Of a stretch of 64,000 bases of DNA, positions 3,941-33,842 are shown in pieces. A model generated the notes under the pieces. That model was not told where the DNA came from, made no database searches, and saw nothing but the letters and a program-made list of their open reading frames with translations. The first letter of the stretch is position 1; each line of letters opens with the position of its first letter. Position numbers and translations under genes: made by a program. Source of the DNA: Candidatus Woesearchaeota archaeon (GTDB lineage Archaea; Nanobdellota; Nanobdellia; Woesearchaeales; SM23-78); the NCBI GenBank assembly GCA_016935175.1, contig JAFGRK010000032.1, positions 1,719 through 65,718 on the forward strand, given 5' to 3'.

Positions 3941-4098
3941 GAAAAAGTCGCGTTGGGCAACAAAAGCTGAGGCTTTTGAGGTGCCAGCGTTTCTGGCACC
4001 ACCCCGGATGGGGCGACCCCCGCCCAAGCAACCACTGTGCAAGTCCTCGCTTATGCTTCGGACGTTGCACTGGTCGCTGGTTGCCGCGACTTTTTTTT
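3941..4098 (-). repeat. Structured intergenic repeat, copy E (core in minus orientation).
   Basis: Termini gaaaaagtcgcg ... cgcgacttttttttt. Core (reverse complement) ggcgggggtcgccccatccggggtg. Confidence 0.6.
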
Positions 4099-4148
4099 AC
4101 TTAATGTTAATATTAATCGATAATTTTATATATTCTCATTAGTCATAA

Positions 4149-4670
4149 ATGCTTTTAGATAGTTTAATTCATAAACTGTCAAGGAAAAGAGGTGGGCAGC
4201 TATTGCCAGAGGAAGTAATAAGGACAGGAGTGGATGACCTGCTAGATCTTCTTAAGAAGACAGACAAGATATCAGTCCATGAAGCAGCCAAGAAGCTGAA
4301 GCTCAGCTCTGAGATGATACAGGCATGGGTAGATTTCCTGGTGGAAGAGGAGATAGTAGGAGTGGAGTACAAGTTCACCAAGCCAATAATCTACCTCAAC
4401 AAGCCACAGCAGGCCAAAGTGGATACTACAGTGAAGGAAGAGCCTGTTCAGAGCATGGAGATCTACAAGGCAGAGTTCAAGAGGAAAGCTGCTGAGAAGA
4501 ACATCCCTCAGGAAAAGATAAGCTTCTTCTGGCGCAACCACGTAAAGGAAGTATTAGTAAGGAAAAAAGACTTTTTTTACAGGGAAGCAAAGAAAAGGAA
4601 CCTTGCCAACGTGGAAAATCTTTGGAAGGCTTACGGGGAGAAGCTGCTCTCATCTCACAGCGCATCATGA
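4149..4670 (+). CDS. Hypothetical small protein with a predicted winged-helix/HTH segment.
   Basis: Complete ORF. The HTH-like stretch is ISVHEAAKKLKLSSEMIQAWVDFLVEEEIV. No recognisable catalytic motif. Confidence 0.4.
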   Translation: MLLDSLIHKLSRKRGGQLLPEEVIRTGVDDLLDLLKKTDKISVHEAAKKLKLSSEMIQAWVDFLVEEEIVGVEYKFTKPIIYLNKPQQAKVDTTVKEEPVQSMEIYKAEFKRKAAEKNIPQEKISFFWRNHVKEVLVRKKDFFYREAKKRNLANVENLWKAYGEKLLSSHSAS

Positions 4671-4688
4671 TAAAGGGGAAAATAAACA

Positions 4689-6137
4689 ATGGACTTTGAG
4701 AAATTCATCGATATTGACATCATAGAATTCCTTGACGAGCAAGCCCTAGCCCAGGCTGAGAAGTCAGCAGAGGTGAGGGAAGAGGAGTTCGACCTGTACG
4801 AGATAACCCAGGACTACACCCTGAACATAACCAAGGCCTTGAAGGAAGGCAACCTGAAAAAAGCCCAGGAGATATTTGAGGATGTCAAGTCCAAGTACAA
4901 CAAGGCTCCCGCAGACTCGCTCAACAAGAAAAGGCTTTACATCATCATGGAGGAGATATTTGAGAAGATAAAGGACTATGAGAGCCAGGAGGAAGGCAAG
5001 AAAAACCTTTTCGAGACCATAAGGGAGTACGAGGAGACAGGATTGTTCGCTACTCCAGGCCAGGCAGAGAAGAAAGCTCCTGAGACTATCGGCCTGCTCC
5101 TGAGCACCATCCACATAAAGGAGAAAGAGCTAGAGAAGATAACCACCAAGCAAACACTTAACCATTATGACTTTGCAAGGGCTATCCAGAGATACAGGCA
5201 GCTCAAGGAGCTCATCAAGAGGATTCCTGCTGAGCACGAGCAGGAAAAGGCTAAGAGCTATGAGTCAGCCCTGACATGGTATTACACTATCAAGAAGCTC
5301 AAGGAAAGGCTGGACAAGGAAGAGGAAAGCAAGATAAAGGAGGAGGCAGCCAAGGAGCAGCAGGACGAGAGGCCTATAGAGGAGAAGCTTGCAGAGGTAA
5401 GGAGGATCAAGGAAGAGATAATCCAGAGCCACATGAGGATAGTGGAGCTGGTAAGGAAGAAGGAGCTGCAGGCAAGCATAGAGGAATACAGGAAGCTAAA
5501 GGCCTTGTGCGAAGAGTTCCCATATGAGATGGAAGCAGAGAAGACAGCCCTGCTGGCAGACGCCCTTAGCATGTACGAAAGCATCAAGAGGCTTAAGCAA
5601 GAGCTGGCAAAAGAGGGCAAGGAAAAGAAAGAGGCCCATGAGCAAGAGCAAGCACAGGAAGAAAAAGAGCAGGCTGCCAAGCAGCAGATAATCAGCAAGA
5701 TAAGCAAGGTCAGGGAATGCCTGTCAAAGCAAGACTCTGAAGGCGCAGCCAGGGAGTACAATGAGATAAGGGAGATGTTCAGGGGCTACAGGGAAGGCTC
5801 GCTTGAGGAAAAGAAAGAGCTGTTTGACCAGATAATGAAAGCCCACCAGGACATAAGGAAGCTGCACGAGGAAGCCAAGAAAAAAAGCTCTCCGGGAAAT
5901 GAGAAGAAAACAGAGGGGATACAGGAGAAGCTTAACCATGTCCAGGAGCTGATAGACAGCGAGCAAGTGGATGAGGCAACGCAGCTGCTGTTAGAGGCCA
6001 AGCACCAGATAGAGATGCTCCCCCATGACGCTTTCGACGACAAATACTCTTTCACCAAGCAGGCAGAGGCAGCAGAGCACAAACTGCTCTTCCTGAAGAA
6101 CATGCACCGGATAGCAGCGCCTATAGGCGCAAGATGA
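4689..6137 (+). CDS. Highly charged alpha-helical repeat protein (K/E-rich, ~5 repeats of ~45-50 aa). Function unknown, located within the pilus locus.
   Basis: Internal repeats such as HYDFARAIQRYRQLKELIKRIPAEHEQEKAKSYESALTWYYTIKKLKERL and LQASIEEYRKLKALCEEFPYEMEAEKTALLADALSMYESIKRLKQEL. No TM segments. Confidence 0.5.
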   Translation: MDFEKFIDIDIIEFLDEQALAQAEKSAEVREEEFDLYEITQDYTLNITKALKEGNLKKAQEIFEDVKSKYNKAPADSLNKKRLYIIMEEIFEKIKDYESQEEGKKNLFETIREYEETGLFATPGQAEKKAPETIGLLLSTIHIKEKELEKITTKQTLNHYDFARAIQRYRQLKELIKRIPAEHEQEKAKSYESALTWYYTIKKLKERLDKEEESKIKEEAAKEQQDERPIEEKLAEVRRIKEEIIQSHMRIVELVRKKELQASIEEYRKLKALCEEFPYEMEAEKTALLADALSMYESIKRLKQELAKEGKEKKEAHEQEQAQEEKEQAAKQQIISKISKVRECLSKQDSEGAAREYNEIREMFRGYREGSLEEKKELFDQIMKAHQDIRKLHEEAKKKSSPGNEKKTEGIQEKLNHVQELIDSEQVDEATQLLLEAKHQIEMLPHDAFDDKYSFTKQAEAAEHKLLFLKNMHRIAAPIGAR

Positions 6138-6166
6138 CAATTAGAATTAAAAGAGGATAATCCATA

Positions 6167-7660
6167 ATGGTTGAACTAGCAAGGCTAACAAGCCCGGGAC
6201 GGGCAAGCTTCTCAAGGAAGGAGCTGATAGACAGGTACACCATCACAGTCAACAACATAGTAGTGGACATAAGCATCTATTCTGAGGAGGACAAGCCAGT
6301 CCCGGAGTACGTGGTATCAATAACCAATATCAGCGACGCCACCAAGATAATCCTTGAGAAGATAAGGCAGGAGTTCATCTCCAAGATGAACCTTGAGGAG
6401 ATAGAGAAGCTGGAGCAGAACGAACTGATCAATATCAGGCAGAGGTTCAAGGGAGAGATAAAGAAGCTAATCTTCAAGTACTTCCCCAAGGCAGATGACA
6501 CCACAGCCAACATGCTCATCAACTACCTGATAGAGGAAAACCTGGGGATGGGCAAGGTGGAAATACTGCTCCAGGACCCAGCGCTTGAGGAGATAGTCAT
6601 CAACAACCACAAGGAGCCAGTATGGATCTATCACAGAAGGCACGGCTGGCTGGTCACCAACATCAAGATAATATCAGAGGACAGGATAAGGCACTTCGCA
6701 ACCATGATAGGAAGGGATGTTGGCAAGGAGATAACCAACCTCAGCCCATTGATGGACGCCCACCTAATGACAGGAGACAGGGTCAATGCCACCTTGAACC
6801 CTATCAGCACCAAGGGGCACACAATAACCATAAGGAAGTTCTCAGCAGACCCGTGGACCATCACCAAGTTCGTCAAGGAAGGGGTCCTTAGCTATGAGGC
6901 AGCAGCCTTCATCTGGCTGGCAGTGCAGAACGAATTAAGCGTTCTCATAAGCGGAGGCACAGGAAGCGGAAAGACCAGCATGCTGAACGTCATAAGCAAC
7001 TTTTTCCCGCCAAACCAGAGGATTATCAGCATAGAGGACACCAGGGAGCTAACTCTCCCGGAAAACCTGCACTGGGTACCGTTGGAGACCAGGCTTCCCA
7101 ACCCAGAAGGCAAGGGGGGAGTCACAATGCTTGACCTGCTGGTTAACAGCCTGAGGATGAGGCCTGACAGGATACTGGTGGGAGAGATAAGGAGGAAAAA
7201 AGAGGCAGAAGTATTGCTTGAGGCCATGCACACAGGGCACTCAGTCTATGCTACCATACACGCCAACAATGCAGAAGAGGTCATCATGAGGCTCACCAAC
7301 CCGCCGATAGAGATCCCCAAGCCCATGATAGCATCACTATCGCTGATAGTCATCCAGAACAGGAACAGGAGGACAGGCAAGAGAAGGACTCTCCAGCTGG
7401 CAGAAGTGACCCCTAGCGGCGACGTCAAGGTAATCATGAAGCTCAACATGGTGAAGGACATCCTAGAGGACGCAGCCAAGTCAGATACTGTGATTGATAG
7501 GCTTAAGCTATACACAGGCATGAGTGAGGAAGACATATCAAAAGACCTCACAGAGAAAGCCAGGATACTGAGGTGGATGGTCAAGAAGAACATCTTAAAT
7601 GTCAACCAGATAGGAGTGGTGATAGCCAAGTACTACATGGGGACTCTCTACCTTGACTAA
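6167..7660 (+). CDS. Type IV pilus / archaellum-family secretion ATPase (GspE/VirB11/FlaI/PilB superfamily).
   Basis: Walker A ISGGTGSGKTS, an Asp-box/Walker B region RIISIEDTRELTL, and a His-box VGEIRRKKEAEVLLEAMHTGHSVYATIHAN. The 497-aa length is typical of FlaI/PilB-like ATPases. Confidence 0.9.
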   Translation: MVELARLTSPGRASFSRKELIDRYTITVNNIVVDISIYSEEDKPVPEYVVSITNISDATKIILEKIRQEFISKMNLEEIEKLEQNELINIRQRFKGEIKKLIFKYFPKADDTTANMLINYLIEENLGMGKVEILLQDPALEEIVINNHKEPVWIYHRRHGWLVTNIKIISEDRIRHFATMIGRDVGKEITNLSPLMDAHLMTGDRVNATLNPISTKGHTITIRKFSADPWTITKFVKEGVLSYEAAAFIWLAVQNELSVLISGGTGSGKTSMLNVISNFFPPNQRIISIEDTRELTLPENLHWVPLETRLPNPEGKGGVTMLDLLVNSLRMRPDRILVGEIRRKKEAEVLLEAMHTGHSVYATIHANNAEEVIMRLTNPPIEIPKPMIASLSLIVIQNRNRRTGKRRTLQLAEVTPSGDVKVIMKLNMVKDILEDAAKSDTVIDRLKLYTGMSEEDISKDLTEKARILRWMVKKNILNVNQIGVVIAKYYMGTLYLD

Positions 7661-7682
7661 AAAAATATTTAGGGGGGAATAA

Positions 7683-8492: not shown

Positions 8493-8534
8493 AAAAACTA
8501 ACAAAAAAAATTAACATAAAAAAAGCAAATAAAC

Positions 8535-9566
8535 ATGACAATCCAACTTTACCTTGAGGAATTTGGAAAAGCATTTGTGCCCAAGAAGATAAGACCAAAG
8601 CTAGGCAAATACCTGGCCAAGGCAGGAATAGACGAAGTGCCCTACAAGCTATTCGGGATAATGTTCTGGGTTGCTGCAGTAATAACTTATTTTGTGTACG
8701 TCCCCCTGCTCTACCCGCTCCTGAAGCAGCTGCACTTGTTCGTGTTCTTCATACTCACCTTCTTCTCATGGTTCCTGGTGCAAGTATTAGTTTCAGGCAT
8801 GATAGTGATGTCAACTTATTTCTACCTTAACATAACCATCTACCAGAGGACCAAGATATTAGAGGACATGCTCCCAGACTACTTGTCACTCGTATCAACC
8901 AACCTGAAAGGAGGGATGAGCTTTGAGAAATCCCTCTGGTCAGCTATCAAGCCAGAGTTCGGCATACTGTCCAATGAGATAGGATTAGTGAGCAAGAAAG
9001 TAGCCACAGGCAATGATGTGAGCGAGGCATTGCAGGAATTCGCCAACAAGTATGACTCGCCAGTCCTCACCAGGAGCATAGACCTGATAAAAGGAGAGAT
9101 CCTGAGCGGAGGCACCATTTCAGGAGTGATAGACAGCCTGGTGACCAATCTCAAGAAGACCAAGGCCTTAAGGCAGGAAATGGTAGCAGCCACCCTCACC
9201 TACATGATATTCATGGCAGTAATAGTCATAGTCATCATGCCAGCCTTGTTCGCGCTCTCAAAACAATTATTGATAATACTGCTCAAGTTCGGGGCTCAGG
9301 TAAGCTCAAGCTTCCAGGCAGCAGGGACCCAGAACGCCATGTTCAACTTCTCAGTGGCCAACATCGACCCCTTCCATTTCCAGATGTTCTCAGTAGGCGC
9401 CATAAGCATAATAGCAGTCTTCACCTCCATGATCATAAGCACCATAGAAAAAGGCGACATAAGGGGAGGGTTGAAATACATACCCTTGTTCCTGGTAGGC
9501 GCGGTAGTCATGTACTTCATCTTCAACTCCATACTAGGCTCAGTCATGAGCGGCATGCAAATATAG
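8535..9566 (+). CDS. TadC/FlaJ/PilC-like polytopic membrane protein, second half (second T2SSF-like domain). Together with 7683..8492 it forms a split FlaJ equivalent.
   Basis: T2SSF-like domain (YLSLVSTNLKGGMSFEKSLWSAIKPEFGILSNEIGLVSKKVATGNDVSEALQEFANKY) and multiple TM helices. Confidence 0.7.
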   Translation: MTIQLYLEEFGKAFVPKKIRPKLGKYLAKAGIDEVPYKLFGIMFWVAAVITYFVYVPLLYPLLKQLHLFVFFILTFFSWFLVQVLVSGMIVMSTYFYLNITIYQRTKILEDMLPDYLSLVSTNLKGGMSFEKSLWSAIKPEFGILSNEIGLVSKKVATGNDVSEALQEFANKYDSPVLTRSIDLIKGEILSGGTISGVIDSLVTNLKKTKALRQEMVAATLTYMIFMAVIVIVIMPALFALSKQLLIILLKFGAQVSSSFQAAGTQNAMFNFSVANIDPFHFQMFSVGAISIIAVFTSMIISTIEKGDIRGGLKYIPLFLVGAVVMYFIFNSILGSVMSGMQI

Positions 9567-9585
9567 GGCAGAAGCTATTGTAATC

Positions 9586-9681
9586 GCCAAAGCCAAGACC
9601 GTCGCAGCCTTGATATGCAACATTTGCGTTAGCAAATTTGCATGGCGCGGCGAGCGGTAGCGAGTAGGGCTTGGCTTTGGC
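9586..9681 (+). other. Nested hairpin element between the TadC-like gene and the first pilin gene.
   Basis: A 12-bp outer stem gccaaagccaag/cttggctttggc encloses an inner 12-bp bulged hairpin atgcaacatttgc-gtta-gcaaatttgcat. Confidence 0.4.
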
Positions 9682-10296: not shown

Positions 10297-10372
10297 GATT
10301 ATTTCTTTTTTTAATATTCTTTTCTTTTTCCTTTTATTTAATTTTTGCACAAGCCAAGATAGTAAGAGCACC

Positions 10373-13856: not shown

Positions 13857-13860
13857 TTCT

Positions 13861-13978
13861 GAAAAAAAGTCGCCTCAGCCGTCAGCAAGTGCAACGATGT
13901 TTACAAAGTAAACGAGTTGCACGATGGCTGACGAGGCGGGGGATGCCCCCACGGGGTGCCGAGGGCGACTTTTCTTTT
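13861..13978 (+). repeat. Structured intergenic repeat, copy A (downstream of fttA).
   Basis: gaaaaaaagtcgcctcagccgtcagc...ggcgggggatgcccccacggggtgccgagggcgacttttc. An outer 10-bp stem plus an inner long imperfect hairpin. Confidence 0.65.
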
Positions 13979-14098
13979 CAAAAGCTTTAAATACTTTCTT
14001 AGCCAAGGAAGCATGTATGTAGATGTAGGACTACAAAAAAGGTAGTTGTGAGCATAAAAAGTTATAGGCATAAAAAAAAAGAGGTTAGCAATCATAAC

Positions 14099-15655
14099 AT
14101 GGCAACAGCTGAAGACTGGGGCAAGCTGCTAGTGCAGCACGGCTTCATAAAGGATAAATCCAGGGCTAAGTACAAGCAGAAAGATGATGGGACTTGGATT
14201 GCTGCGCAAGGGGATGCAAGCCCTTCTGACGCTGACATGGAAGAGGCAGAGGAAGCTAACATAACAGCATCAACTGCTTCAGCCTTCACCAGCTACATAA
14301 AGACAGGCTACCCTGACCCTTTCAAGAGGTACAGGCTGATTGTTGAGTCACCTAATGTCAGCATAGAGGAGAACTACTATTGGCTTCTGAACTATATGCG
14401 CTACAGCAGCGCATTTCCCCACGTAGATAAGCTTACTGACATCTTCAGCGCAAGCGAGCAGAGCGCCTTCTGGGGAGCCTCCCAGAACAGGATAGGCATA
14501 CAGCAGGACAGGGCTTCTGGCTACCTCAAGGGAATCTCTGAGATGATAAAGACAGGGCTTTTCCAGCTGGTCAGGGAGCTGAGGATTATTGACGAGAAGC
14601 TTGAGCCTAGGAAGCAATGGGGCAAGAACAAGGCAGCAGACATAGCCCTAAAAGGCGAGTACGGAGACCTGGTTGAGAACAGGGGAGGCCAGGTGCAGCC
14701 AGGAAGCATCTACCACCTATCACAGAATGTTGGGTTTACTATCCTGCCTGACTTGTTCTTCAACACCCAGGTCTATGACCTAGACGAAGTGGACAAAGTG
14801 GTTGACAACCTAAAGTTCAACACCAATGTGAAGCACGTTCTCAGGAGAAAGCTTTTTGCCTTCATCAACTGGAAGCTCAAGACAGACAAGGAGCTGGAGA
14901 GCAGGAGGACCTTCACCCTAAAGTACTTGCGCCAGCACTGGAACGTCATCAAGATGTACATGAACTGGGTCAAGCCTTATATCAGGAACATTGCAAGGCT
15001 ACAGATGAGCCCTGAGCACACAGAAAGCCCTGACCTGATAAGCGCTTTTGAGACCAGCATGGTAGAAGTGGAGATACTTGCGCATAAGGAGAGCAAGACG
15101 CGCTACCACCCTTGCATCCTAGCAACTTTCAAGTACAGGACCAGGCCTGAGCTAAGCTTCCAGAAAGACCAGTACGCCCACAGGGGACCAATTCACGTCG
15201 GCTACCTTGAGATAACCCTTAGGGGGTATGGGTGGAGCAAGGAACAGATAGAAGCTTACAAGAAGCTAAAGAAAGCAGAGGACATGATGCTCCTGGGAAT
15301 GGTTGATGAAGGAATAAAGGCAGCAATGGATGCCCTAGGCGAGGACCTAGAGAAATACTTGTGGGAAGCAGGAGAGAAAGAGTTTGAGGAGAAGAGGAAA
15401 GCCAAGGAAGCAGAAGAAAAGAAGAAAAAGAAGAAGCTGGACACCAGCCTGGCCTTAGGCGCACTAGACCCTTTCCTCTCAGTCTTCAAGGGCATGTGGG
15501 AGATGTTCAACATCTTCGTGCCTGTAAGCTCAGTGCAGCTGGGAGGGAAAAAGAAAGCCAAAGGCGACCCAAAGGATGCTGCAGCGGCTGCAGCAGTGGA
15601 GATGTTCCTCATGTACAAGAACTACAAGAAAGCCCACTCCATGCTCAGCTGGTAA
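14099..15655 (+). CDS. Hypothetical protein with a C-terminal K/E-rich charged segment and an amphipathic tail.
   Basis: Long ORF. The track start at 14048 is a GTG, and an ATG at 14099 is preceded by SD-like 'gaggt'. No recognisable motif. First gene of an apparent three-gene plus-strand operon. Confidence 0.5.
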   Translation: MATAEDWGKLLVQHGFIKDKSRAKYKQKDDGTWIAAQGDASPSDADMEEAEEANITASTASAFTSYIKTGYPDPFKRYRLIVESPNVSIEENYYWLLNYMRYSSAFPHVDKLTDIFSASEQSAFWGASQNRIGIQQDRASGYLKGISEMIKTGLFQLVRELRIIDEKLEPRKQWGKNKAADIALKGEYGDLVENRGGQVQPGSIYHLSQNVGFTILPDLFFNTQVYDLDEVDKVVDNLKFNTNVKHVLRRKLFAFINWKLKTDKELESRRTFTLKYLRQHWNVIKMYMNWVKPYIRNIARLQMSPEHTESPDLISAFETSMVEVEILAHKESKTRYHPCILATFKYRTRPELSFQKDQYAHRGPIHVGYLEITLRGYGWSKEQIEAYKKLKKAEDMMLLGMVDEGIKAAMDALGEDLEKYLWEAGEKEFEEKRKAKEAEEKKKKKKLDTSLALGALDPFLSVFKGMWEMFNIFVPVSSVQLGGKKKAKGDPKDAAAAAAVEMFLMYKNYKKAHSMLSW

Positions 15656-18389: not shown

Positions 18390-18521
18390 CCTAAAAATTG
18401 TTTGTGCCAATTTACGAGCATACTCTGTTTAAGCATTTGCTTGAGCCGGGGGGATGCCCCCTCGGGGGTGGCTCGGTATCAATTTAGCAAGCTACCATGC
18501 GAGCCCGGCACAATTTTTAGG
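18390..18521 (+). repeat. Structured intergenic repeat, copy B (divergent flanks, same core).
   Basis: Outer stem cctaaaaattgt..gcc / ggcacaatttttagg. Core ccggggggatgccccctcgggggtggctcgg. Confidence 0.55.
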
Positions 18522-20224: not shown

Positions 20225-21013
20225 TTAGTAGAATCCTACGACATAATAGCCGCCTGACAAGGGCTCTGAAATCCTTGCATAATAGGCAGGCTCATCTGAG
20301 TAAACATCTCTTGCATAGGCTCCGTAGCTATTGTAGCTGCCGTAGCCGTAGCCATAGTTAGAGTAGCTTGGATAACCATAGCTTCCGAATGAGCTGTAGC
20401 TAGTGTATCCATAATCGTTATATCCATATCCATAATTGTTATATCCATAGTTGCTTCCATAGCTGCTATAGTAATTGTTGTAATGGTTATTGTTGTAATA
20501 GTTGTAACTAGGATAATTGTAAGTCAAGACTCCATATGACTGGTATGCTTGAGGATGGTCAAAGTATGTCCCTCCAAGGTTGTTGTCCACGTAGCCTGTG
20601 TATCTTCCACCCTCATAGTCAGCATAGTACTTGACTGCTGATGGCTGGTACAGGCTTGAGGTGTAGCCTCTCGTGTCTGTGTAATAGGCTTCTCCTTGGA
20701 GTGGAGGGTTGTATTTTGCCTGGAGCACTTGCGGAGAGACATAGTAGTAGCTTGCTGGCCTAAAGCCAAAGCTCTTCACCAGGTTAGGCTCATAGATGTA
20801 TTGCTCATAGCCTTCGAGGTCATTTATCTTGATGTAGTCTTCCCTGTATTCCAGGTACCTGTCCCATTCTTCCTGCCTTGCCGCAGTCACATTGAATATT
20901 ATTGCGCTGGCTAGCTGGGATAGGCTCAAGGCTAGAACCGTGCATAATATTGCTAGGATTATCCTCTTATTCATTGAAATCCCCCTGATTCCCAGTATAA
21001 TGTGCTTTGCCAT
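20225..21013 (-). CDS. Secreted Tyr/Gly/Ser/Asn-rich low-complexity protein (GYGYN-type repeats).
   Basis: Signal peptide MNKRIILAILCTVLALSLSQLASA; the likely true start is an internal Met at about 20974. The C-terminal half is NYGYGYNDYGYTSYSSFGSYGYPSYSNYGYGYGSYNSYGAY. Confidence 0.6.
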   Translation of the reverse strand: MAKHIILGIRGISMNKRIILAILCTVLALSLSQLASAIIFNVTAARQEEWDRYLEYREDYIKINDLEGYEQYIYEPNLVKSFGFRPASYYYVSPQVLQAKYNPPLQGEAYYTDTRGYTSSLYQPSAVKYYADYEGGRYTGYVDNNLGGTYFDHPQAYQSYGVLTYNYPSYNYYNNNHYNNYYSSYGSNYGYNNYGYGYNDYGYTSYSSFGSYGYPSYSNYGYGYGSYNSYGAYARDVYSDEPAYYARISEPLSGGYYVVGFY

Positions 21014-22083: not shown

Positions 22084-22181
22084 TCATACCACCCTTTATT
22101 GTTTTAAACAAGAGTTATAGCTATTATCCCGAACTAAGTATATATAAAATTTTTGGATTAAAGCCCATATGATGGAAAAAG

Positions 22182-22285
22182 TGGGGTTGCGAAGATTTGA
22201 ACTCCGATTACGTGGCCCCGAACCACGGGTGATAATTGCTCCAGCAGCCCAAAAGGGCTCACTGACCAAGTTACACTACAACCCC
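22182..22285 (-). tRNA. tRNA-Pro (anticodon CGG), with a probable ~30-nt non-canonical intron in the D-arm region.
   Basis: Minus strand: acceptor GGGGTTG/CAACCCC plus discriminator A; intact anticodon arm CGTGG-TTCGGGG-CCACG; T-arm CGGAG-TTCAAAT-CTTCG. Total length is 104 nt. The D-stem GTG(T)/(T)CAC can form only if about 30 nt (GTGAGCCCTTTTGGGCTGCTGGAGCAATTA, plus 22233-22262) are removed. A TATA-like 'ttttaaaca' lies ~25 nt upstream on the minus strand. Confidence 0.55.
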
Positions 22286-22385: not shown

Positions 22386-24371
22386 GTGTATAACGTAAAA
22401 ATTTGGTGGAGTTTAATGTATTACAAATCAATAAGCTCATACTTTGCGTTATTCATAATAATAATCTTTCTTACAAGCTGCACAATTAACGATTACGATA
22501 AAAAAACTACGGCAACAGATCAATCTGGAAGCGATGATTGTTTAAAGCTTACCCGAGCTTTAGAAAGCGATTTTAAAAATAACGGAGATGGTTTTGCTTC
22601 ATTAGCAAAACTTCAAAATATTAATCGTAGCTATGTAATTTTATCTGAAACACGTAAAAATGAAACAGTAGGAGGTATAATAAGAGGAATTCACATATTT
22701 AACCAAAATATAGAAGGAGTGGACGGGAGATATGCAGAAGAAGAGACTATCACTCGTTGCCTTGTTGAATTCGATCTTGGGAAAAAATCAGCGCTTATTC
22801 TTTATGATGATGGAGATATTGATATCGATGTAAGCGAGCTCAGCCATAAATATAAAGTTGGAACTTTCTATACTTTCAATATGTTTGATCACTTCGCAGA
22901 TGATGGTCATAGTTGGAAAGGACCTTCTTTAAATGAATATGCTAAGTGCAATAATGATAAAAAGCTCAAGGAATATTTAGATGAGCGTCGTTTGCCAACC
23001 AAAAAAGATTGCACTTCAGATGCTGATTGCGGATTATATAATAATACGTATTTTGGGATTGTTACTGCTTGTCATAAAGAGGATTGGGACTGCATTGAGA
23101 AAGCAGAACAAAATAATAGAGGCTCCTATGGCCATGGTCCCGGCCCTGCTCCAAGAGAAAGCTTTTATGTCATTTGTCAAGGAGGAGAATGCATAAAAGA
23201 AATGAATTGTAGCGTATGTAACTCTGAAATTACCAGAAAGAATTGCGCTGAAGTCCAGTACGTTACTGGCGGTTCCTGGCAATGCGCACGTATTGGTAGC
23301 TGCGGCTGCAAGATTGGCTGTTCTAATGAATCTGATGGTGTTTGTCCTCATCTTCTGTGCGAGGATTATGTAGATGACACTGACAGAGAAATTCCTTATT
23401 CCATTTGCTGCTATCATAAAGAATACTTTGATGCTGACTGCTGCCAAGCAGCAGGAAAATACTGGATTAAAACTAACCAGGGATACGTTTGTTCTGACAA
23501 GGACTATAACCCTGGCTGTAATCCAGGGCAAGAATGTAGCGCAACCTCTGATGGATGCTGCCCCAATTGGTGTATTATAGGCACAGATGCAGATTGTTGC
23601 AAACAAGCAGGAAAATACTGGCTGACCAACTCCTGGGGAGGGAGCGCGTGCTACAATGCTGATTACAACCGCGGGTGCTCACCAAGTAATGATTGTGAAA
23701 CAAAAGGAGACGGATGCTGCCCAAACTGGTGCTCTGCAGGCTCAGATATAGACTGCTGCAAGCAGGAAGGTAAATATTGGCTAACAGAGCTTTCAGGGTC
23801 AGAAGGGTGCTATGACTCTCATTACAGTAAAGGATGCTCGCCAGAAAGCGAATGTGAGATTTTCGGGGATGGATGCTGCCCAAACTGGTGCTCTGCAGGC
23901 TCAGATGCAGACTGCTGCAAACAAGCAGGAAAATACTGGCTGACCACCTCATGGGGAAGTTATATTTGCTCTAATCAGTCGAACTACAACTCTAGCTGTT
24001 TGGCAAACAGTGATTGTGAAATCGTTGGGGATGGTTGTTGCCCAAGTTGGTGCGCCTTGGCCATAGATATCGATTGCTGCCAACAAGCAGGCGGAAACTG
24101 GCAAGAAGCAGAATATGGTTTCTCATGCTTTTTAAAAAACCAGGAAAACAGAACAGCCCAAACCAAAACATGCAAGTTATCCTTACCTGACGGTGAATGT
24201 CCTAGCTGGTGCCAGTATTATGAAGATGCAGACTGCTGCAATGAGGTAGGAGGTTATATTATCCCAGGAAACTATGAATTTGGCCCTGCGTGCGCAATAG
24301 ACTGCCCAAAAGTAGATTGTGACGATTCACTCAATCACGGTTTCATACACTCGGTTATCTCATCAAAATAA
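22386..24371 (+). CDS. Cysteine-rich tandem-repeat protein (6 repeats of ~52 aa, 8 Cys each) with a lipobox-like signal (FLTSC); putative surface lipoprotein.
   Basis: Repeat consensus D-x-DCC-[KQ]-Q-A-GKYWLT...C....Y..GC.....C....GDGCCPNWC.AGS. Two DNA copies are near-identical (about 23712-23790 and 23870-23950). AT-richer than its surroundings. N-terminal hydrophobic segment ending LTSC. Confidence 0.7.
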   Translation: MYNVKIWWSLMYYKSISSYFALFIIIIFLTSCTINDYDKKTTATDQSGSDDCLKLTRALESDFKNNGDGFASLAKLQNINRSYVILSETRKNETVGGIIRGIHIFNQNIEGVDGRYAEEETITRCLVEFDLGKKSALILYDDGDIDIDVSELSHKYKVGTFYTFNMFDHFADDGHSWKGPSLNEYAKCNNDKKLKEYLDERRLPTKKDCTSDADCGLYNNTYFGIVTACHKEDWDCIEKAEQNNRGSYGHGPGPAPRESFYVICQGGECIKEMNCSVCNSEITRKNCAEVQYVTGGSWQCARIGSCGCKIGCSNESDGVCPHLLCEDYVDDTDREIPYSICCYHKEYFDADCCQAAGKYWIKTNQGYVCSDKDYNPGCNPGQECSATSDGCCPNWCIIGTDADCCKQAGKYWLTNSWGGSACYNADYNRGCSPSNDCETKGDGCCPNWCSAGSDIDCCKQEGKYWLTELSGSEGCYDSHYSKGCSPESECEIFGDGCCPNWCSAGSDADCCKQAGKYWLTTSWGSYICSNQSNYNSSCLANSDCEIVGDGCCPSWCALAIDIDCCQQAGGNWQEAEYGFSCFLKNQENRTAQTKTCKLSLPDGECPSWCQYYEDADCCNEVGGYIIPGNYEFGPACAIDCPKVDCDDSLNHGFIHSVISSK

Positions 24372-24540
24372 TATTCATGGACTCTGCGGGACTTTCATCA
24401 GATTTTCAGATAGCAAAAAAAGGGGACTGAGCAAAGCTTTGCTTTGCGAATGTCTCCTAGTTTTTACCAGATTCAAAAAAAGCTTTGCTTTTGATGCTCA
24501 AAAACTTTTGTTTTTGATGTTTCCTAAAAATCTGTTTTGA

Positions 24541-24652
24541 ACCCGCGGCCCCCACATTGCGAATGTGGTGCTCTTTCCCGCAACAAGGGAAACTCAAAAA
24601 GGTTTCCTTTTTGCTGTACCAGGCTGAGCTAAGAGCCCATAAGAACACGGGT
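24541..24652 (-). other. tRNA-like locus (scrambled or multi-intron tRNA, or a tRNA pseudogene): D-arm, anticodon arm (GUU) and T-arm are recognisable, but there is no simple acceptor pairing.
   Basis: The minus strand reads GGGCTCT-TA-GCTC-AGCCTGGTA-CAGC, then a hairpin, then TTCCC-TTGTTGC-GGGAA, then CCACA-TTCGCAA-TGTGG. A candidate 7-bp acceptor ACCCGTG/CGCGGGT exists only if extra segments are excised. Confidence 0.25.
24587..24613 (+). terminator. Hairpin plus T-tract terminator candidate downstream of the Cys-rich gene.
   Basis: gggaaactcaaaaaggtttcc followed by ttttt. It overlaps an alternative hairpin tttccc-gcaacaa-gggaaa. Confidence 0.35.
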
Positions 24653-24666
24653 TATAATCAGCTCTT

Positions 24667-25173
24667 TTAAATCTTTTTATGCGCAAAGAAGATTATGTCC
24701 TTGTCCTCCTCGATTATCTCGTCAATGCCAAACAGCTCCTTGATAAGGGATTGAATCTCCTGCAGCTTAGAGCTCCTCTTGAGGATGCTGAACACAAACC
24801 TGCTCCTGCCCACCCGCTCCATCTCCTCCATGCCCTTCCTTATGTCATTGAAGTTATGGATGGCTGTGAGGCTTATCACAAAGTCAAATGTGTTGTTCTC
24901 AAATGGCAGCTCCTCGGCGCAGCCGCACATAAGCTTGTGCTTGCCCTTGTACTGCTTGACTAGCTTCTCAGAAAGGTCAATGCCAGTCACCTGGCACTTG
25001 AAAAGCTTGAGGTAAGAGCCATTGCCACAGCCAACATCAAGAAGAGTCAGGTTCTTGGACTGCTGTGTTGCCTTGCAGAGCTCTAGCTTGCCAGCAATGA
25101 TAGCTGCTTTCTTTTGCTGCTCCTCCCCGTGAAGCCTGGAGTACCCTTTTGAGATGGCGTTGTAGTAGTTCAT
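24667..25173 (-). CDS. Class I SAM-dependent methyltransferase (small, Methyltransf_11-like).
   Basis: Motif I LLDVGCGNGSY, an acidic residue after beta2 (TGIDLSE) and motif IV FDFVIS. Confidence 0.8.
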   Translation of the reverse strand: MNYYNAISKGYSRLHGEEQQKKAAIIAGKLELCKATQQSKNLTLLDVGCGNGSYLKLFKCQVTGIDLSEKLVKQYKGKHKLMCGCAEELPFENNTFDFVISLTAIHNFNDIRKGMEEMERVGRSRFVFSILKRSSKLQEIQSLIKELFGIDEIIEEDKDIIFFAHKKI

Positions 25174-28685: not shown

Positions 28686-28727
28686 CTATAAAAATGTTCT
28701 CATAAATTCAAGCTTGTTAGAAGCTAA

Positions 28728-29843: not shown

Positions 29844-29920
29844 GCAAGCCAAACGGGGTTCATGGTTTAAATAGGCTACGGGTGACTGTCCAGTGTGTCT
29901 AGTGCTTATTTTATTAAGTG

Positions 29921-30079
29921 AAAAAGTTGCCATCGGCACCCCGTAGGGGCCGTCCCCCGCCTCTGCAGCCAGCGAGCCGTCCTTCGCTAAAAGATCAGGC
30001 GCGGCTCGCGGTGCAGGTGCTCAGAAGTGCTCTTCTGGCACCGCAAGAGGTTACTCTTGCAGGCTGCGGCAACTTTTTC
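29921..30079 (-). repeat. Structured intergenic repeat, copy D (in the divergent promoter region between the radical SAM gene and the K+ channel gene).
   Basis: Plus strand gaaaaagttgccatcggcaccccgtaggggccgtcccccgcc ... ggctgcggcaactttttc. The reverse complement gives gaaaaagttgccgcagcc...ggcgggggacggcccctacggggtgccgatggcaacttttt. Confidence 0.65.
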
Positions 30080-30127
30080 AACATCACCCATTAACTTTTT
30101 AAACACCGGCTACTACAAGAGAGAAAT

Positions 30128-30536
30128 CATGGATTTAAATGCAAAAGAGGAGAAGAAGAAAATCATCCAGAAGATATTCTCATTGCTCTCAATAGTTGTA
30201 TCCCTGCTAATCATAGGGACAATAGTATATTCCAGGCTTGAAGGCTGGGGCTTTGTTGACTCGCTGTATTTCTCAACCACAACTCTCACGACCATTGGCT
30301 ATGGCGACATCACTCCTAGCACAGAAATTGGCAAGCTTTTCACAGTCTTGTTTGCGCTTACAGGAGTGGCCATAATGCTTTACTCCCTCACCATCCTAGG
30401 CACCCATTACATCCATTACCTTGACACGCACAAGCCTGCTTTTGAGCACAGGATGAAGAAAGCAATAAAGACCATTAATCCCCTTAGCAAGAAAGAGGAC
30501 GGATGGTTTGTTCTTAAGGATAAGAAGAAGGAATGA
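30128..30536 (+). CDS. Minimal two-TM potassium channel (KcsA/Kcv-like pore).
   Basis: Selectivity filter TLTTIGYGD between two TM helices. The track ORF starts at 30027 inside repeat copy D, and the likely start is MDLNAKEE at 30128. Confidence 0.8.
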
Positions 30537-30593
30537 TATTCTGCATTAACATATTCCCAAATCTTTAATAACAACTTCATAATTCTATCTGCC

Positions 30594-31406
30594 ATGGCAA
30601 TGAATTTTGTTTCAGTAAGCGGAGTCTCTGAACTGGAGCAACTGGAAGGCATAGGCAGGGTTTATCATGGGGAAAAGATTGGCTTTCCCTTGGTCATAGG
30701 CTACCAAGTTTCTAGCAAGAGCATCAACCAGGGCACAAGAAACCCTAGGCAACCTTATTTTTCTGAACTGGGAATGCTCAATACCTTGACCGAGGACTAT
30801 GGGCTTCACACAGCAGTGCATTACTACACCAAGGATAATGCTGTGATAATGGCAGACCTTGAAAAAATAATTGATGCAGGCATAGAGCCTTCAGCAACCT
30901 TGCTCCAGCTCAACACGCTTCCTTGCTCCTTGGAAGAGTTAGCAAAGATAAATGAAATGGGCTTTAATGTGATTTTCAAGGTTGCAGTGTCCAACAAGCA
31001 GGCTCCTCAAGGAGGGTACGCTGTCTGGAAAGGCGAAGGCGTGCAGGATGTCACAAGCGGAGAAGCAGCGCCTTTAGTCTCCCAGGTCGCAGAAAGGCTT
31101 GGGCTCATTGACTATGCGATGTTCGACCCTAGCCATGGCACCAATCTCAGCCTGGACTTTGACGAGAACAGCATGGCGATGAAGTTCGGAAAGGCAATAG
31201 TAAATAATCCGCAGCTCATGAAGATCGGATTAGTCTATGCTGGAGGCATCAAGCCAGGCAATGTCAGCAGAATAACACGATTATTGCATGCAAGCTTCCC
31301 AAACAGGTTTAGCATTGACACTGAGAGCGGAGTGAGAGCTAATGATGAGCTTGACCTAGGGCTTGTAAAGGAGTATCTTCTAGGGTATAAGAAGGCTTTG
31401 GAGTGA
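30594..31406 (+). CDS. TIM-barrel protein resembling phosphoribosylanthranilate isomerase (TrpF-like).
   Basis: C-terminal GLVYAGGIKPGNV...SIDTESGVR resembles the TrpF motifs LAGGLxPxNV...GVDVSSGVE. No other trp genes lie nearby. Confidence 0.45.
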   Translation: MAMNFVSVSGVSELEQLEGIGRVYHGEKIGFPLVIGYQVSSKSINQGTRNPRQPYFSELGMLNTLTEDYGLHTAVHYYTKDNAVIMADLEKIIDAGIEPSATLLQLNTLPCSLEELAKINEMGFNVIFKVAVSNKQAPQGGYAVWKGEGVQDVTSGEAAPLVSQVAERLGLIDYAMFDPSHGTNLSLDFDENSMAMKFGKAIVNNPQLMKIGLVYAGGIKPGNVSRITRLLHASFPNRFSIDTESGVRANDELDLGLVKEYLLGYKKALE

Positions 31407-31490
31407 AGCCGCACCTGTGTTGTTATCTGCCCTAAAACACAAGATTTATATAACAGTTATATTATATTATAACCACTATAATCATTATAG

Positions 31491-31691
31491 GTGGTAGCTA
31501 TGAATACAACAATCGCAATCTCTTCAAGCGTAAGGGACAGGATAAAGGAATTTGGGACGAAGGGAGAAACTTATGATGAGATAATCACCAGGCTCCTGAA
31601 TTCTGCTGAGGAAAGGCAGCTGCAGGACTTGCTGATGGACACAACTGGATGCATCACTATTGATGAGGCAAGGGCAAGGCTGAAAAAATAA
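31491..31691 (+). CDS. Small putative antitoxin-like protein (RHH/Phd-like).
   Basis: 66 aa. An N-terminal beta-strand-like stretch TIAISSSVRDRIKEF. Only a 1-nt gap to the downstream toxin-like ORF. Confidence 0.35.
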   Translation: MVAMNTTIAISSSVRDRIKEFGTKGETYDEIITRLLNSAEERQLQDLLMDTTGCITIDEARARLKK

Positions 31692-31692
31692 A

Positions 31693-32034
31693 ATGGCACA
31701 GGTAGTGATTACAGAAGAGCTATTCGCAGACATAAAAAAGCAGTTTAGCCTTGCTGAAGCAAACACAATAGTTGACCTTTTAGAAACACTTGAAGAAAAC
31801 CCTAAGAAAGGCAAAGAAGTCGGATGCATAGGTAAGGTTGTGATAAAGGAGATTAAGTACAAGAAATACAGGTTCTATTTCGTCACAGACGGTTTCAAGG
31901 TTAAATTCCTCAAGGTGGAAGAGCTACAGGACTTAATAATCAAGTTCGTCAGGATGTCGCAGAAAAAAGACCAGAAGCAAACCATCGAGGAGATAAAGCA
32001 CGTCCTAAGGATGCTTGGGGAAGAAGGGTTCTGA
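31693..32034 (+). CDS. Putative RelE/ParE-like toxin of a type II TA pair.
   Basis: 113 aa with a basic C-terminal half (KEIKYKKYRFYFVTDGFKVKFLKVEEL). Tight coupling to the 66-aa upstream ORF. Confidence 0.35.
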   Translation: MAQVVITEELFADIKKQFSLAEANTIVDLLETLEENPKKGKEVGCIGKVVIKEIKYKKYRFYFVTDGFKVKFLKVEELQDLIIKFVRMSQKKDQKQTIEEIKHVLRMLGEEGF

Positions 32035-32047
32035 AAAGAAAAAAGAA

Positions 32048-32163
32048 TAGCCCTGCCAGGAAATTCGCTGGCTTTTTCTTTCCAGGTTCGAACCTGGGCC
32101 AGAGGATGTCTCCAACTTGGTGTTGCCAGAGTCCCCTATCCTTGGCCGCTAGACTACAGGGCT
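32048..32163 (-). tRNA. tRNA-Gln (anticodon CUG) with two introns: a canonical 18-nt intron at 37/38 and a ~25-nt non-canonical intron in the T-loop.
   Basis: Minus strand, 116 nt. Acceptor AGCCCTG/CAGGGCT plus A. D-arm GTCT-AGCGGCCAA-GGAT. Anticodon stem GGGGA/TCCTC with loop CTCTGG|intron CAACACCAAGTTGGAGAC|A. Removing the second intron CCTGGAAAGAAAAAGCCAGCGAATT restores the T-arm CCAGG-TTCGAAT-CCTGG. Exon total is 73 nt. A TATA box lies ~25 nt upstream (shared with rpl10e). Confidence 0.7.
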
Positions 32164-32180
32164 ATCAGAGCATAAAAAAA

Positions 32181-32196
32181 CAGCAACCTTTTTAAA
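32181..32196. promoter_or_regulatory. Shared, near-palindromic TATA box serving divergent rpl10e (+) and tRNA-Gln (-).
   Basis: acctttttaaatagtt lies 25 nt upstream of the rpl10e ATG and ~22 nt upstream of the tRNA-Gln 5' end on the other strand. Confidence 0.45.
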
Positions 32197-32220
32197 TAGT
32201 TTGTTGTTTCAGCAGCTTCT

Positions 32221-32745
32221 ATGGCAAAACTAAGAAAAGGAGTCTCATATAGGAATCTGGAGAGGCCTTACACTAGAAGGTCCAAGTACCAGAAGAAGAA
32301 CTATGTAGGCGCAAGCCCCCATAACCTTATTGTCAGGTATGACATGGGCGAGCTCAAGAGGAAATTCGAGTACAAGTTAGAAGTCAAGTCCTTGGATGAC
32401 TTGCAGATCAGGCATAATGCGCTTGAAGCTGCCAGGAAGTCCAGCAACAGGGTTTTGGAGAAGAAGACTGGCAAGGTCGGCTTCAGGATGAAGCTTAGAT
32501 TGTTCCCTCATCATATTCTTCGTGAGAATCCTTTGGCTAGCGGCGCAGGGGCTGACCGTATGAGCACAGGAATGGCCCATTCCTTTGGCAAGCCTATTGG
32601 CATTGCTGCGCAAATAAGGAAAGGACAGGTTTTGTTTGAGATCCATGTTGACAAAGCCAACATACCTGTGGCCAAGGAGGCTGCCAGGAGGATTAAGAGC
32701 AAGATTCCTTGCAGGTGCCAGCTAGTCATTACCAAGAACGAGTAA
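32221..32745 (+). CDS. rpl10e: 50S ribosomal protein L10e (uL16).
   Basis: N-terminus MAKLRKGVSYRNLERPYTRRSKYQKKNYVGASPHNLIVRYDMGE matches the archaeal L10e pattern. 174 aa. Confidence 0.9.
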   Translation: MAKLRKGVSYRNLERPYTRRSKYQKKNYVGASPHNLIVRYDMGELKRKFEYKLEVKSLDDLQIRHNALEAARKSSNRVLEKKTGKVGFRMKLRLFPHHILRENPLASGAGADRMSTGMAHSFGKPIGIAAQIRKGQVLFEIHVDKANIPVAKEAARRIKSKIPCRCQLVITKNE

Positions 32746-32747
32746 GA

Positions 32748-33695
32748 TTACTTTATTCTCTTGCCTATCTCTCTTTTCAATTCTTCAATGCTGGTTATTG
32801 CCTTATACTCATTGGCAAAGGTTGTGAATTCATTTTGCCCTAGCAAATCTGTCTTTGAGATGTAGATTATGATTGGCTTGTCAAAGCTCTTGATTTTCCC
32901 CAATAGCTTTTTCTGGTCTTCCAATGGATAGGGCTCTGTGAGGTCAAAGATGTAGATTATCAGCTCTGCCTGGTACTTGATTGCAAGGTATGCTTGCTTT
33001 TCTATGTTGTTCATCTTCTCAGGCCTTGCAAGGGTTCCTGGTGTGTCTATGAACTGCACTTTATTCTCTTTTATGTCAGCATATCCTAGGTTGAGCTGCT
33101 TAGTTGTGAAAGCATACTCATTGATTTCCGGAGTGCTGGTTGTGAGCTTGCTTAATAGAGTGGTCTTGCCTACGTTTGGGAAGCCTGCTATGCACACTGT
33201 AAACACTCCTGTCTTTAGCACTGGGAAGTTTTTCATAGTCCTCCTTGCAAACTCCAAATATTCAAGGTTAAGTGATATCTGCGCAATAACAGAGCTGACC
33301 CTTCCAAGGTAAGCTTTCTTTACCGTGTCTAGCTGGGGAAACTCATTAGTCCTTGCCATCCTTTGCTTGTGCTCCCTTGTGAGCTCTTTTATCTTGTTAG
33401 CAGCCCACTTGACATTGGACAAGGATTTTTTTAGCTTGTCATAGTCCACAGTCACTTTTAACAGCTCATGGTAGAACTCTGGGAACTCCCCAAGGATAGG
33501 GTAATTTTTGACTATCTCTCCTAGCTTGCTTGCCAGGTTCTCGCCAATAATGCCTATCCTGTCATACTCCCTTGGCCTTGCCTTCTCAAAAGCTAGCCCT
33601 CTTTTCTTCGGGCTATTATGCTTGAGAGCCCTTTTCACAGCTATGTCCAGGTAGGTCTGGGCTTTCTCTACTCTTTTTATGTCTTGGAAGCTCAT
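32748..33695 (-). CDS. NOG1-family GTPase (archaeal nucleolar GTP-binding protein 1 homolog).
   Basis: G1 GFPNVGKTTL, G3 DTPG, G4 SKTD. The N-terminal helical region is typical of NOG1. Confidence 0.8.
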   Translation of the reverse strand: MSFQDIKRVEKAQTYLDIAVKRALKHNSPKKRGLAFEKARPREYDRIGIIGENLASKLGEIVKNYPILGEFPEFYHELLKVTVDYDKLKKSLSNVKWAANKIKELTREHKQRMARTNEFPQLDTVKKAYLGRVSSVIAQISLNLEYLEFARRTMKNFPVLKTGVFTVCIAGFPNVGKTTLLSKLTTSTPEINEYAFTTKQLNLGYADIKENKVQFIDTPGTLARPEKMNNIEKQAYLAIKYQAELIIYIFDLTEPYPLEDQKKLLGKIKSFDKPIIIYISKTDLLGQNEFTTFANEYKAITSIEELKREIGKRIK

Positions 33696-33733
33696 GGCTC
33701 ACAAGAATGAGCGGGGTTATATAAATGTTTACA

Positions 33734-33842
33734 GAAAAGTTGCCGCAGCCAGCAGCAGCAAGAACGAAAATGCTTGCATTGAGTTCTTGTGCGGCTGCTT
33801 GACCGGGGGTCGGCCCCCTTGGGGTGGTCAAGGCAACTTTTC
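33734..33842 (+). repeat. Structured intergenic repeat, copy C.
   Basis: gaaaagttgccgcagccagcagc...ccgggggtcggcccccttggggtggtcaaggcaacttttc. The 5' end is nearly identical to copy D. Confidence 0.65.

Follow-up and report, generated by a model that had tools for sequence, protein, structure and literature searches.

The genomes of DPANN archaea are very small and dense in genes, and few mobile elements are thought to reside in them. What, then, are the five hairpin-forming intergenic repeats of 110-160 nt that lie in a 64,000-nt stretch of a Candidatus Woesearchaeota genome (contig JAFGRK010000032.1, positions 1,719 to 65,718; hereafter the window), and how did they get there? A preliminary description had offered three candidate explanations: a mobile element like the MITEs (miniature transposable elements of the inverted-repeat type), a bidirectional terminator or insulator like the repetitive extragenic palindromes (REPs), or a family of small structured RNAs. 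Our comparison of the repeats with their relatives in other genomes favors, with about even confidence, a non-autonomous REP/MITE-like mobile palindromic element that would be recognized as folded DNA and put to secondary, terminator-like use in both directions.

The repeat unit and its covarying fold

Read directly, all five repeats (copies A to E; Table 1) lay at their predicted coordinates and on their predicted strands, with A and D on the minus strand and B, C and E on the plus strand. The conserved core that had been claimed for them, searched as GGGGGN{2,4}GCCCCN{1,4}GGGGTG, matched at exactly five sites in the window, one in each copy, and 0 of 100 dinucleotide-preserving shuffles of the window contained a match. 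The motif AAAAGTYGC occurred nine times where 1.6 were expected, and eight of these nine occurrences are the paired ends of copies A, B, D and E, which share the termini AAAAGTYGCC/GGCRACTTTT. Copy C has other ends that are nonetheless complementary. On folding, every copy formed nested hairpins inside a closing stem, as the preliminary description had said, and the energies were −46 to −85 kcal/mol whichever strand was folded. From 14 canonical copies we built a covariance model, R1. With its filters off, R1 recovered the five copies from the full window and nothing else, its next best match reaching 10.7 bits (E = 0.8). The density in the window is about one copy per 13 kb, with five copies within 30 kb and then none in the remaining 30 kb.

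Across the family, which extends to related genomes (L-numbers below denote loci from these), the unit has a median length of 114 nt (range 98-170 nt) and a G+C content of 54%, compared with about 44% for the genome. Its 11-bp closing stem, P1, pairs (R)AAAAGTYGCC with GGCRACTTTT(Y), is thus built on an A-run and a T-run, and was 97% paired in 27 copies. The long hairpin P2 has a recognizable base (GCMRCC/GGYKGC) and a body that varies by subfamily, while P3, a 3-7 bp stem of free sequence, encloses the invariant core C-GGGGG-NNG-CCCCC-N2-3-CGGGGU-G. The C-run of the core can pair with either the 5' or the 3' G-run, giving two mutually exclusive GC hairpins; the core is asymmetric and can be read as three alternating GGGG half-sites. 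Three copies in the metagenome-assembled genome (MAG) JAFGDD01 carry GCGCCC...GGGCTG, a change that is compensatory for pairing of the C-run with the 3' G-run and disrupts pairing with the 5' G-run; these three copies may be traceable to one event. Larger copies (A, D, L010, L014, L022, L024 and L026) have the same scaffold with extra small hairpins, often the module CAAAAG-N-CTTTTG. The insert hairpin of L024 lies inside the core, with a duplicated GCCC on its flanks. Modules near-identical to the nested hairpin of copy A (CAAAAGCTGCGGCTTTTG) were read at 3935-3952 of L024, in the core of another copy, and at 2143-2160 of L027.

The common fold was supported by covariation. In 27 copies aligned to the model, 94% of pair cells were standard and 13 of 27 pairs had changed on both sides (90 cells), in an alignment that was fitted to the model and hence biased toward structure. 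None of 500 column shuffles reached the observed values, and sliding the 3' partners by 1-3 columns left 2-3 such pairs. An independent MAFFT/RNAalifold run on 14 copies gave nine compensatory pairs and a three-way-junction fold with a conserved unpaired CGGGGU. Because the median pairwise identity of copies is only 67.5%, the pairing has been maintained and not just inherited. Nearly all changes lead from one Watson-Crick pair to another: pair cells comprised 678 Watson-Crick, 7 G:T and 6 A:C combinations, so that G:U made up about 1%. A strand-specific RNA would be expected to tolerate G:U and not A:C. Since G:T and A:C are equally rare, the constraint seems to act on both strands, i.e. on DNA or on transcripts of both strands.

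Copies in related genomes and at orthologous sites

Pattern scans and the covariance model together gave about 54 distinct copies, all in one narrow Woesearchaeal (Woesearchaeales, DPANN) clade: in the window, in MAG JAFGDD01, in SM23-78, in CAYUKJ01 and in Joint Genome Institute (JGI) contigs. The scan pattern, a combination of the core's 3' half with the 3' terminus, was searched in one genome per species and matched 17 times in the Zodletone MAG JAFGDD01, twice in MAG CAYUKJ01, once in SM23-78 and six times in assorted bacteria; the bacterial matches had no 5' G-run and no model match, and gauge the chance rate. R1 raised the JAFGDD01 count to at least 21 copies. The same pattern found 45 stretches in JGI metagenomes, 27 of which R1 confirmed at E ≤ 2e-15 (ten on one 654-kb contig); the other 18 had no model match at E ≤ 1e-5 and were used as chance controls. 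The covariance-model search that had been recommended for finding further copies therefore turned up many in related genomes. Viral contigs scanned with the pattern gave no match and no sign of a virus- or plasmid-borne origin.

A comparison with known RNA families had also been suggested, and it returned none. Rfam (release 15) had no match in the whole window at gathering thresholds, and even in permissive E-value mode (E up to 10) copies B and E reached at best 15.5 bits (E = 0.6-0.7), far below every gathering score; a tRNA scan of the window found nothing related to the repeats. In the searchable literature on the termini and on DPANN/Woesearchaeota repeats we found no description of the family, nor any report of a MITE for DPANN or Woesearchaeota; among archaea, MITEs have been described in Sulfolobus, in haloarchaea and in a few further groups (PMC10969869). 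The family is new to Rfam and to the searchable literature, while dispersed intergenic palindromic repeats are as a kind already known.

If the repeats move, some sites should be filled in one genome and empty in its relatives. The FttA and NOG1 proteins of the window match NCBI proteins of a 'Candidatus Woesearchaeota archaeon' (on a contig of 66,376 bp) at 100% identity, and behind them comes a graded series of relatives (FttA 95, 91, 90, 88, 87% identical and so on), 'Euryarchaeota archaeon SM23-78' included. We compared fttA-syntenic loci from five relatives and NOG1-syntenic loci from two. R1 found no copy in the fttA loci L027, L029 and L030 or the NOG1 loci L034 and L035 with filters off, and no match in L028 and L031-L033 with default filters; syntenic sites were additionally read directly. 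Site A is a plain AT-rich spacer with a conserved TATA box in L029-L033, and the element is absent, so that four relative lineages have this site empty. L034, the closest relative (NOG1 88% identical), has an empty site E. Sites B and D are junctions where relatives have extra genes, with the neighboring promoters conserved across the junctions. At junction B (window 13857-14047), L027 and L030 carry a Na+/H+ exchanger gene, among others, after fttA; at junction D (window 29870-30130), the ion-channel and radical-SAM genes of L034 are separated by a 414-aa gene instead. In the closest relative, site A (L027 2075-2290) holds a different composite of at least four small hairpins, including CAAAAGCTGCGGCTTTTG, and is negative with R1.

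Other sites have been kept. At site C, an orthologous element is present in L033 (FttA 87% identical); it shares the unusual termini, and two nested hairpins interrupt its core. In L030 and L031 the element is absent and only a small hairpin, CAAAAATTC-AGA-GAATTTTTG, is found. A second orthologous pair, L042/L045, lies in a divergent spacer beside a tRNA gene and shows compensatory differences in P1 and P2 between flanks that are 88-95% identical. Copies at non-homologous loci of different genomes can be as similar as 88-90%: copy E is 88% identical to a JAFGDD01 copy (L005) at an unrelated locus. We considered orthology for this E-like copy and for the B-like copy L060, and rejected it since their flanking genes are not homologous to those of the window.

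The family thus shows both gain/loss polymorphism and long-term retention. Reading filled and empty sites by parsimony as gain rather than loss, we infer that these comparisons show copies to have spread to new intergenic sites, in either orientation and without target-site duplication. Of the insertion evidence that the preliminary description had called for, empty sites in relatives were found (A and E), and target-site duplications were not.

Further observations concern the genomes themselves. Downstream of its C-type element, L033 carries in the same spacer (20440-20560) a further palindromic block rich in GC, with TTCTGCGCGCCCGAGGGCGCGACCCCGCGCAACG in it, that is absent from the window and L030. 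Two sets of contigs have labels that look doubtful: L010 and L017 (CAYUKJ01), and L002 and L035 (LSSJ01). Contigs of a MAG labeled 'uncultured Methanosarcinales' bear the element, and on one of them lies a homologue, 54% identical, of the gene at 14048-15655 of the window; the FttA of 'Euryarchaeota archaeon SM23-78' is 87% identical to that of the window. Neither the 'Methanosarcinales' nor the 'Euryarchaeota' label seems to fit contigs of Woesearchaeal affinity, and mis-binning is possible for those of CAYUKJ01.

Table 1. The five repeats of the window, their cores and a nested module, with scores in covariance model R1 and gene context.
Feature	Position (strand)	Sequence or structure	R1 match	Context
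Copy A	3941..4098 (-)	enlarged; closing stem AAAAAAAAGTCGCG/CGCGACTTTTT, P2 hairpin, core, two extra hairpins between core and 3' end	47.9 bits, E = 1e-11	9 nt past stop codon of 331-aa gene; antisense to flanking plus-strand genes
Core of copy A	4000..4021 (-)	GGGGGTCGCCCCATCCGGGGTG (pattern match)		
Small nested hairpin module in copy A	3961..3978 (+)	CAAAAGCTGAGGCTTTTG		
Copy B	13861..13978 (+)	canonical, ~110 nt; P1 closing stem, P2 long hairpin, P3, core	97.6 bits	4 nt past fttA stop codon, sense orientation
Core of copy B	13938..13958 (+)	GGGGGATGCCCCCACGGGGTG (pattern match)		
Copy C	18390..18521 (+)	divergent subfamily; termini CCTAAAAATTGTTTGTGCC/GGCACAATTTTTAGG, same core	24.1 bits, E = 1e-4	after AP_endonuc_2 TIM-barrel gene
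Core of copy C	18448..18470 (+)	GGGGGGATGCCCCCTCGGGGGTG (pattern match)		
Copy D	29921..30079 (-)	enlarged; extra hairpins on 5' side of P2	46.7-69.4 bits	between divergent radical-SAM and ion-channel gene promoters
Core of copy D	29937..29958 (-)	GGGGGACGGCCCCTACGGGGTG (pattern match)		
Copy E	33734..33842 (+)	canonical	101.8 bits	8 nt past stop codon of isochorismatase gene (- strand), upstream of NOG1 GTPase promoter; antisense to both genes
Core of copy E	33805..33826 (+)	GGGGGTCGGCCCCCTTGGGGTG (pattern match)		

Placement and candidate origins

The neighbors of the window copies are housekeeping genes (Table 1). The contexts named in the preliminary description stand for fttA, the TIM-barrel gene and the isochorismatase gene; the 'pilin-like' gene is unconfirmed, as the protein of the 331-aa gene upstream of copy A had no Pfam match. 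In the family as a whole, all 51 copies examined lay outside open reading frames (ORFs) of at least 80 aa, though 88% of the DNA is coding. Among the 45 copies that could be classified, 26 were in tandem spacers (9 sense and 17 antisense to the genes), 12 (27%) in divergent and 7 in convergent spacers, compared with 212, 60 and 64 in a background of all spacers in the same sequences. Spacer types are used in proportion to their availability, so there is no preference for gene 3' ends. Copies occur in both orientations with no significant orientation bias.

Within tandem spacers, 15 of the 26 copies lay 0-18 nt from the upstream stop codon, with no T-run between, and copies leave 40-70 nt before the next start codon. 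In the empty spacers of relatives, only about 25 nt separate the stop codon from the TATA box. A position next to the stop codon is expected if the promoter of the next gene must be spared, and the placement fits insertion limited by selection rather than a dedicated signal. In the flanks of 53 copies we saw no consistent direct repeat, no target-site duplication and no consensus for a target; the stem is occasionally extended as a palindrome. In one locus, L008, two copies (1555-1677, plus strand; 1674-1780, minus strand) abut tail to tail with the T/A run GGCAACTTTTCAAAAAATCGCC in common, like a pair of the bacterial interspersed mosaic element (BIME) type; the second belongs to the core-variant subfamily GCGCCC...GGGCTG.

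These flanks bear on the third of the original proposals, a family of free-standing small structured RNA genes with their own promoters, which we regard as most improbable. The covarying three-way junction with its unpaired CGGGGU, together with a terminal stem and a size typical of stable RNAs, would suit such genes, and about one quarter of the copies have a TATA-like octamer 11-30 nt upstream. However, these octamers are explained by the promoters of neighboring genes. No promoter stands at a constant distance, the information content of the flanks being no higher than 0.4 bit per position, and many copies begin 0-10 nt past a stop codon, which leaves no room for one. An excess of G:U pairs and a strand bias are likewise missing, since G:U is no commoner than A:C and the reverse strand folds equally well, and, besides the lack of an Rfam match even at E = 10, the element is absent at the same sites in close relatives.

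In all related Woesearchaeal genomes, even those without the large family, small hairpins built as CAAAA(A/G)-stem-loop-stem-(C/T)TTTTG are found after genes (e.g. L027 9931-9953, L028 6332-6354, L032 9947-9969 and L030 18118-18138). They are conserved at orthologous positions, for instance between the proteasome gene and fttA, and look like the generic bidirectional terminator hairpin of the lineage. We considered whether the large elements insert into pre-existing A5/T5 hairpins of this type. Site C supports the idea (hairpin in L030, element in the window and L033); it is weakened by the palindromic extension, which is not general past the first flanking pair, and by the empty sites A and E, which have no such hairpin, and we keep it as a possibility only.

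A host cis-element, that is, a bidirectional intrinsic terminator or a stabilizer/insulator of the 3' untranslated region that multiplied by duplication or gene conversion and not by transposition, is possible but doubtful. On each strand the closing stem does finish with a T-run; the runs of A and of T are symmetric (means 5.4 and 5.0; both at least 5 nt in 29 of 50 copies), and all copies have at least four Ts. The stop-adjacent position of more than half of the tandem copies, the seven copies between convergent genes, the A5/T5 design shared with the generic post-gene hairpins (one of which holds site C in L030), and compensatory change that keeps the structure at orthologous sites, with 94% of cells paired in spite of the divergence of the copies, would all be at home in a terminator. 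But none is needed in the divergent spacers that hold 12 of the 45 copies, including copy D, whose position in a divergent promoter region was confirmed, and the L042/L045 pair upstream of a tRNA gene. The contexts as a whole match the background without enrichment at gene 3' ends, and in this the earlier argument against simple independent terminators holds. Moreover, neither the invariant G5-C5-G4 core nor the GTYGCC/GGCRAC ends are required for termination, close relatives do without the element at sites A and E, and, with at least five Ts in 33-34 of 50 copies, about one third of the T-runs are only 4 nt long.

The invariant, asymmetric core of alternating GGGG half-sites also invites a reading as an architectural or protein-binding site in DNA (compare BIMEs that bind IHF and gyrase, or cruciform and nucleoid-protein sites), in which the core would be the binding site and the palindrome a cruciform scaffold. 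The lack of strand bias among mismatches, the use independent of orientation and context, and the fairly regular spacing in the window (5 in 30 kb) are consistent with this. We nevertheless find it improbable: 90 nt of covarying hairpins would be superfluous for binding, close relatives that share the gene order lack the family, and no candidate binding protein was identified.

The MITE/REP-like reading as a mobile or dispersed element is favored because close relatives have empty sites, contexts are proportional to availability and copies occur in both orientations; dispersal is also supported by the unrelated genes that flank the copies. The symmetry between strands, in pair changes, A/T-runs and folding energies, speaks for it at the level of DNA. 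The nested small hairpins and the abutting tail-to-tail pair would be modular behavior typical of mobile palindromes. In such a mobile palindromic element, a recombinase or transposase acting in trans would recognize the conserved termini and core, most likely in the form of folded DNA, either single-stranded or cruciform, and an HUH/Y1 enzyme resembling the REP-associated tyrosine transposases (RAYTs) would be the obvious candidate mobilizer. According to a 2026 preprint, K07491 (REP-associated tyrosine transposase) is the only transposase KEGG orthology group with strict hits in 256 Nanobdellota proteomes, which, as an argument from the literature alone, would make a Y1/HUH enzyme the natural candidate. 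Terminator mimicry or co-option is plausible because the closing stem repeats the design of the small CAAAAR...YTTTTG hairpins: with a strong hairpin followed by a T-run on each strand, an inserted copy would mimic the small A5/T5 terminator hairpins of the lineage. It would hence be tolerated, and in some places kept, as a terminator acting in both directions or as a 3'-end structure.

Several results weigh against a mobile element. Besides the missing target-site duplication and target consensus, no ORF lies between two family termini spaced 0.3-4 kb from each other in 729 kb (a fraction of the genomes), and a phmmer search of six-frame ORFs from the same 729 kb with a single, distant query, E. 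coli RayT, yielded no homologue (best E 1.1). No pair within a genome is more than 90% identical, and there is no sign of very recent bursts. The retention of C (window and L033) and of L042/L045 across species, with compensatory differences, fits selection on the structure in place, which a purely parasitic element need not have. Finally, the empty sites could reflect loss, not gain.

A bolder version, that the family is the first archaeal (DPANN) counterpart of REP/REPIN-RAYT or attC systems, a repeat spread as folded single-stranded DNA, recognized by a Y1/HUH enzyme and recruited by the host as bidirectional terminators, seems unlikely to us. Such an enzyme would recognize the G5-C5-G4 switch hairpin and the GTYGCC/GGCRAC foot, and the copies would have been recruited as bidirectional terminators in a streamlined genome of about 1 Mb.

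A structured repeat of this density that keeps its fold by compensatory change shows that DPANN genomes, too, are shaped by REP/MITE-like 'selfish hairpins' or by recruited terminator modules. The family can serve at once as a marker for one Woesearchaeal clade and could help to detect mis-binned contigs. It also offers a defined, covariation-backed RNA/DNA fold on which hairpin-dependent termination in archaea can be tested, and its invariant core could serve as bait for the protein that recognizes it, possibly one of the RAYT-like transposases reported in Nanobdellota.

Neighboring elements and known systems

The window holds other structured sequences. A different palindromic element at 9586-9681, after a T2SSF-like gene that ends at 9566, has a 15-bp stem (GCCAAAGCCAAGACC/GGGCTTGGCTTTGGC) around internal hairpins, and neither the G5-C5-G4 core nor A/T-run ends; copies of it, 85-95% identical, occur in JAFGDD01 (L009 7517-7596 and 4811-4844; L019 1198-1238). 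The spacer at 24400-24660 is crowded with small A5/T5 hairpins (e.g. CAAAAAGGTTTCCTTTTTG at 24595-24613), and its minus strand contains a tRNA-like 5' part, GGGCTCTTAGCTCAGCCTGGTA...CCACATTCGCAATGTGG...GCGGGTTCAAA, seemingly interrupted by insertions. ARAGORN, with or without introns, and Rfam (24350-24700) did not recognize this part, which may be a multi-intron or split tRNA; within it, 24461-24543 matches 3819-3951 of L014 (JAFGDD01) at 92-95%. ARAGORN also gave intron-containing tRNA candidates at 22181-22285 (minus strand) and 32003-32107 (plus strand). It reported a tRNA-Pro(TGG) with a 27-nt intron only if introns were allowed, the default scan having reported no tRNA in the window, and a possible tRNA-Gln(CTG) with a 15-nt intron at a lowered threshold.

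How does the family compare with known repeats? Prokaryotic MITEs are recognized by terminal inverted repeats, small size, multiple copies, intergenic position and stable stem-loops (summarized in PMC10969869). The family has the terminal inverted repeats, the small non-coding multicopy intergenic units and the filled and empty sites, but not the flanking target-site duplication, and is not a textbook MITE. It is like the Neisseria Correia/NEMIS elements and the Streptococcus pneumoniae BOX, RUP and SPRITE elements in being small (100-170 nt) and ORF-less, with terminal inverted repeats, many copies, intergenic location in both orientations, stable stem-loops and nested or clustered elements; SPRITE elements, which are like rho-independent terminators, share with it the resemblance to terminators (PMC10969869). 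Unlike these bacterial repeats, it has no target-site duplication, is GC-rich rather than AT-rich, has strongly diverged copies that still covary, and contains an invariant GC core; no parent insertion sequence was found in 729 kb, and its host is a DPANN archaeon.

The enterobacterial repetitive intergenic consensus elements (ERIC, or intergenic repeat units, IRU) are imperfect palindromes of about 127 nt that lie in transcribed intergenic regions in either orientation, carry variable internal insertions and differ in presence between related species, much as here. ERIC copies are, however, much more uniform in sequence, have no sequence relationship to the family and belong to another host domain. 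Integron attC sites likewise have conserved complementary ends around a variable palindromic center, with unpaired bases that make the fold asymmetric. We rejected this identity: the GGCRAC/GTYGCC ends do not fit RYYYAAC/GTTRRRY, the neighbors are syntenic housekeeping genes (fttA, NOG1), and no integrase was seen. Retron, tRNA-derived SINE (short interspersed nuclear element), K-turn, T-arm and attC readings of the core were all dropped on direct reading of the sequence. As in archaeal oligo-T intrinsic and FttA (aCPSF1)-dependent termination, distal T-runs of 4-8 nt follow many stop codons on either strand, but neither a structured module of about 100 nt nor a conserved GC core is known to be needed for termination signals in archaea, and one quarter of the copies are not downstream of any gene.

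The closest likeness in behavior may be to REP, BIME and REPIN elements. These are also extragenic GC-rich palindromes that conserve structure over sequence, make no duplication, are found in either orientation and can abut as inverted pairs; a RAYT (a Y1 HUH enzyme) is presumed to recognize them as folded single-stranded DNA, with host functions such as termination, mRNA stabilization and protein binding layered on. A REP consists of one imperfect hairpin, 20-40 nt long, that bears a 5' GTAG. The family unit, about 114 nt long, folds into a three-way junction, has A/T-runs at its ends and contains a 22-nt GC core without GTAG, and so falls outside the definition of a REP; a REPIN consists of two inverted REPs, while the unit has one core. 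In its workings the family is more like REP/REPIN elements than like MITEs.

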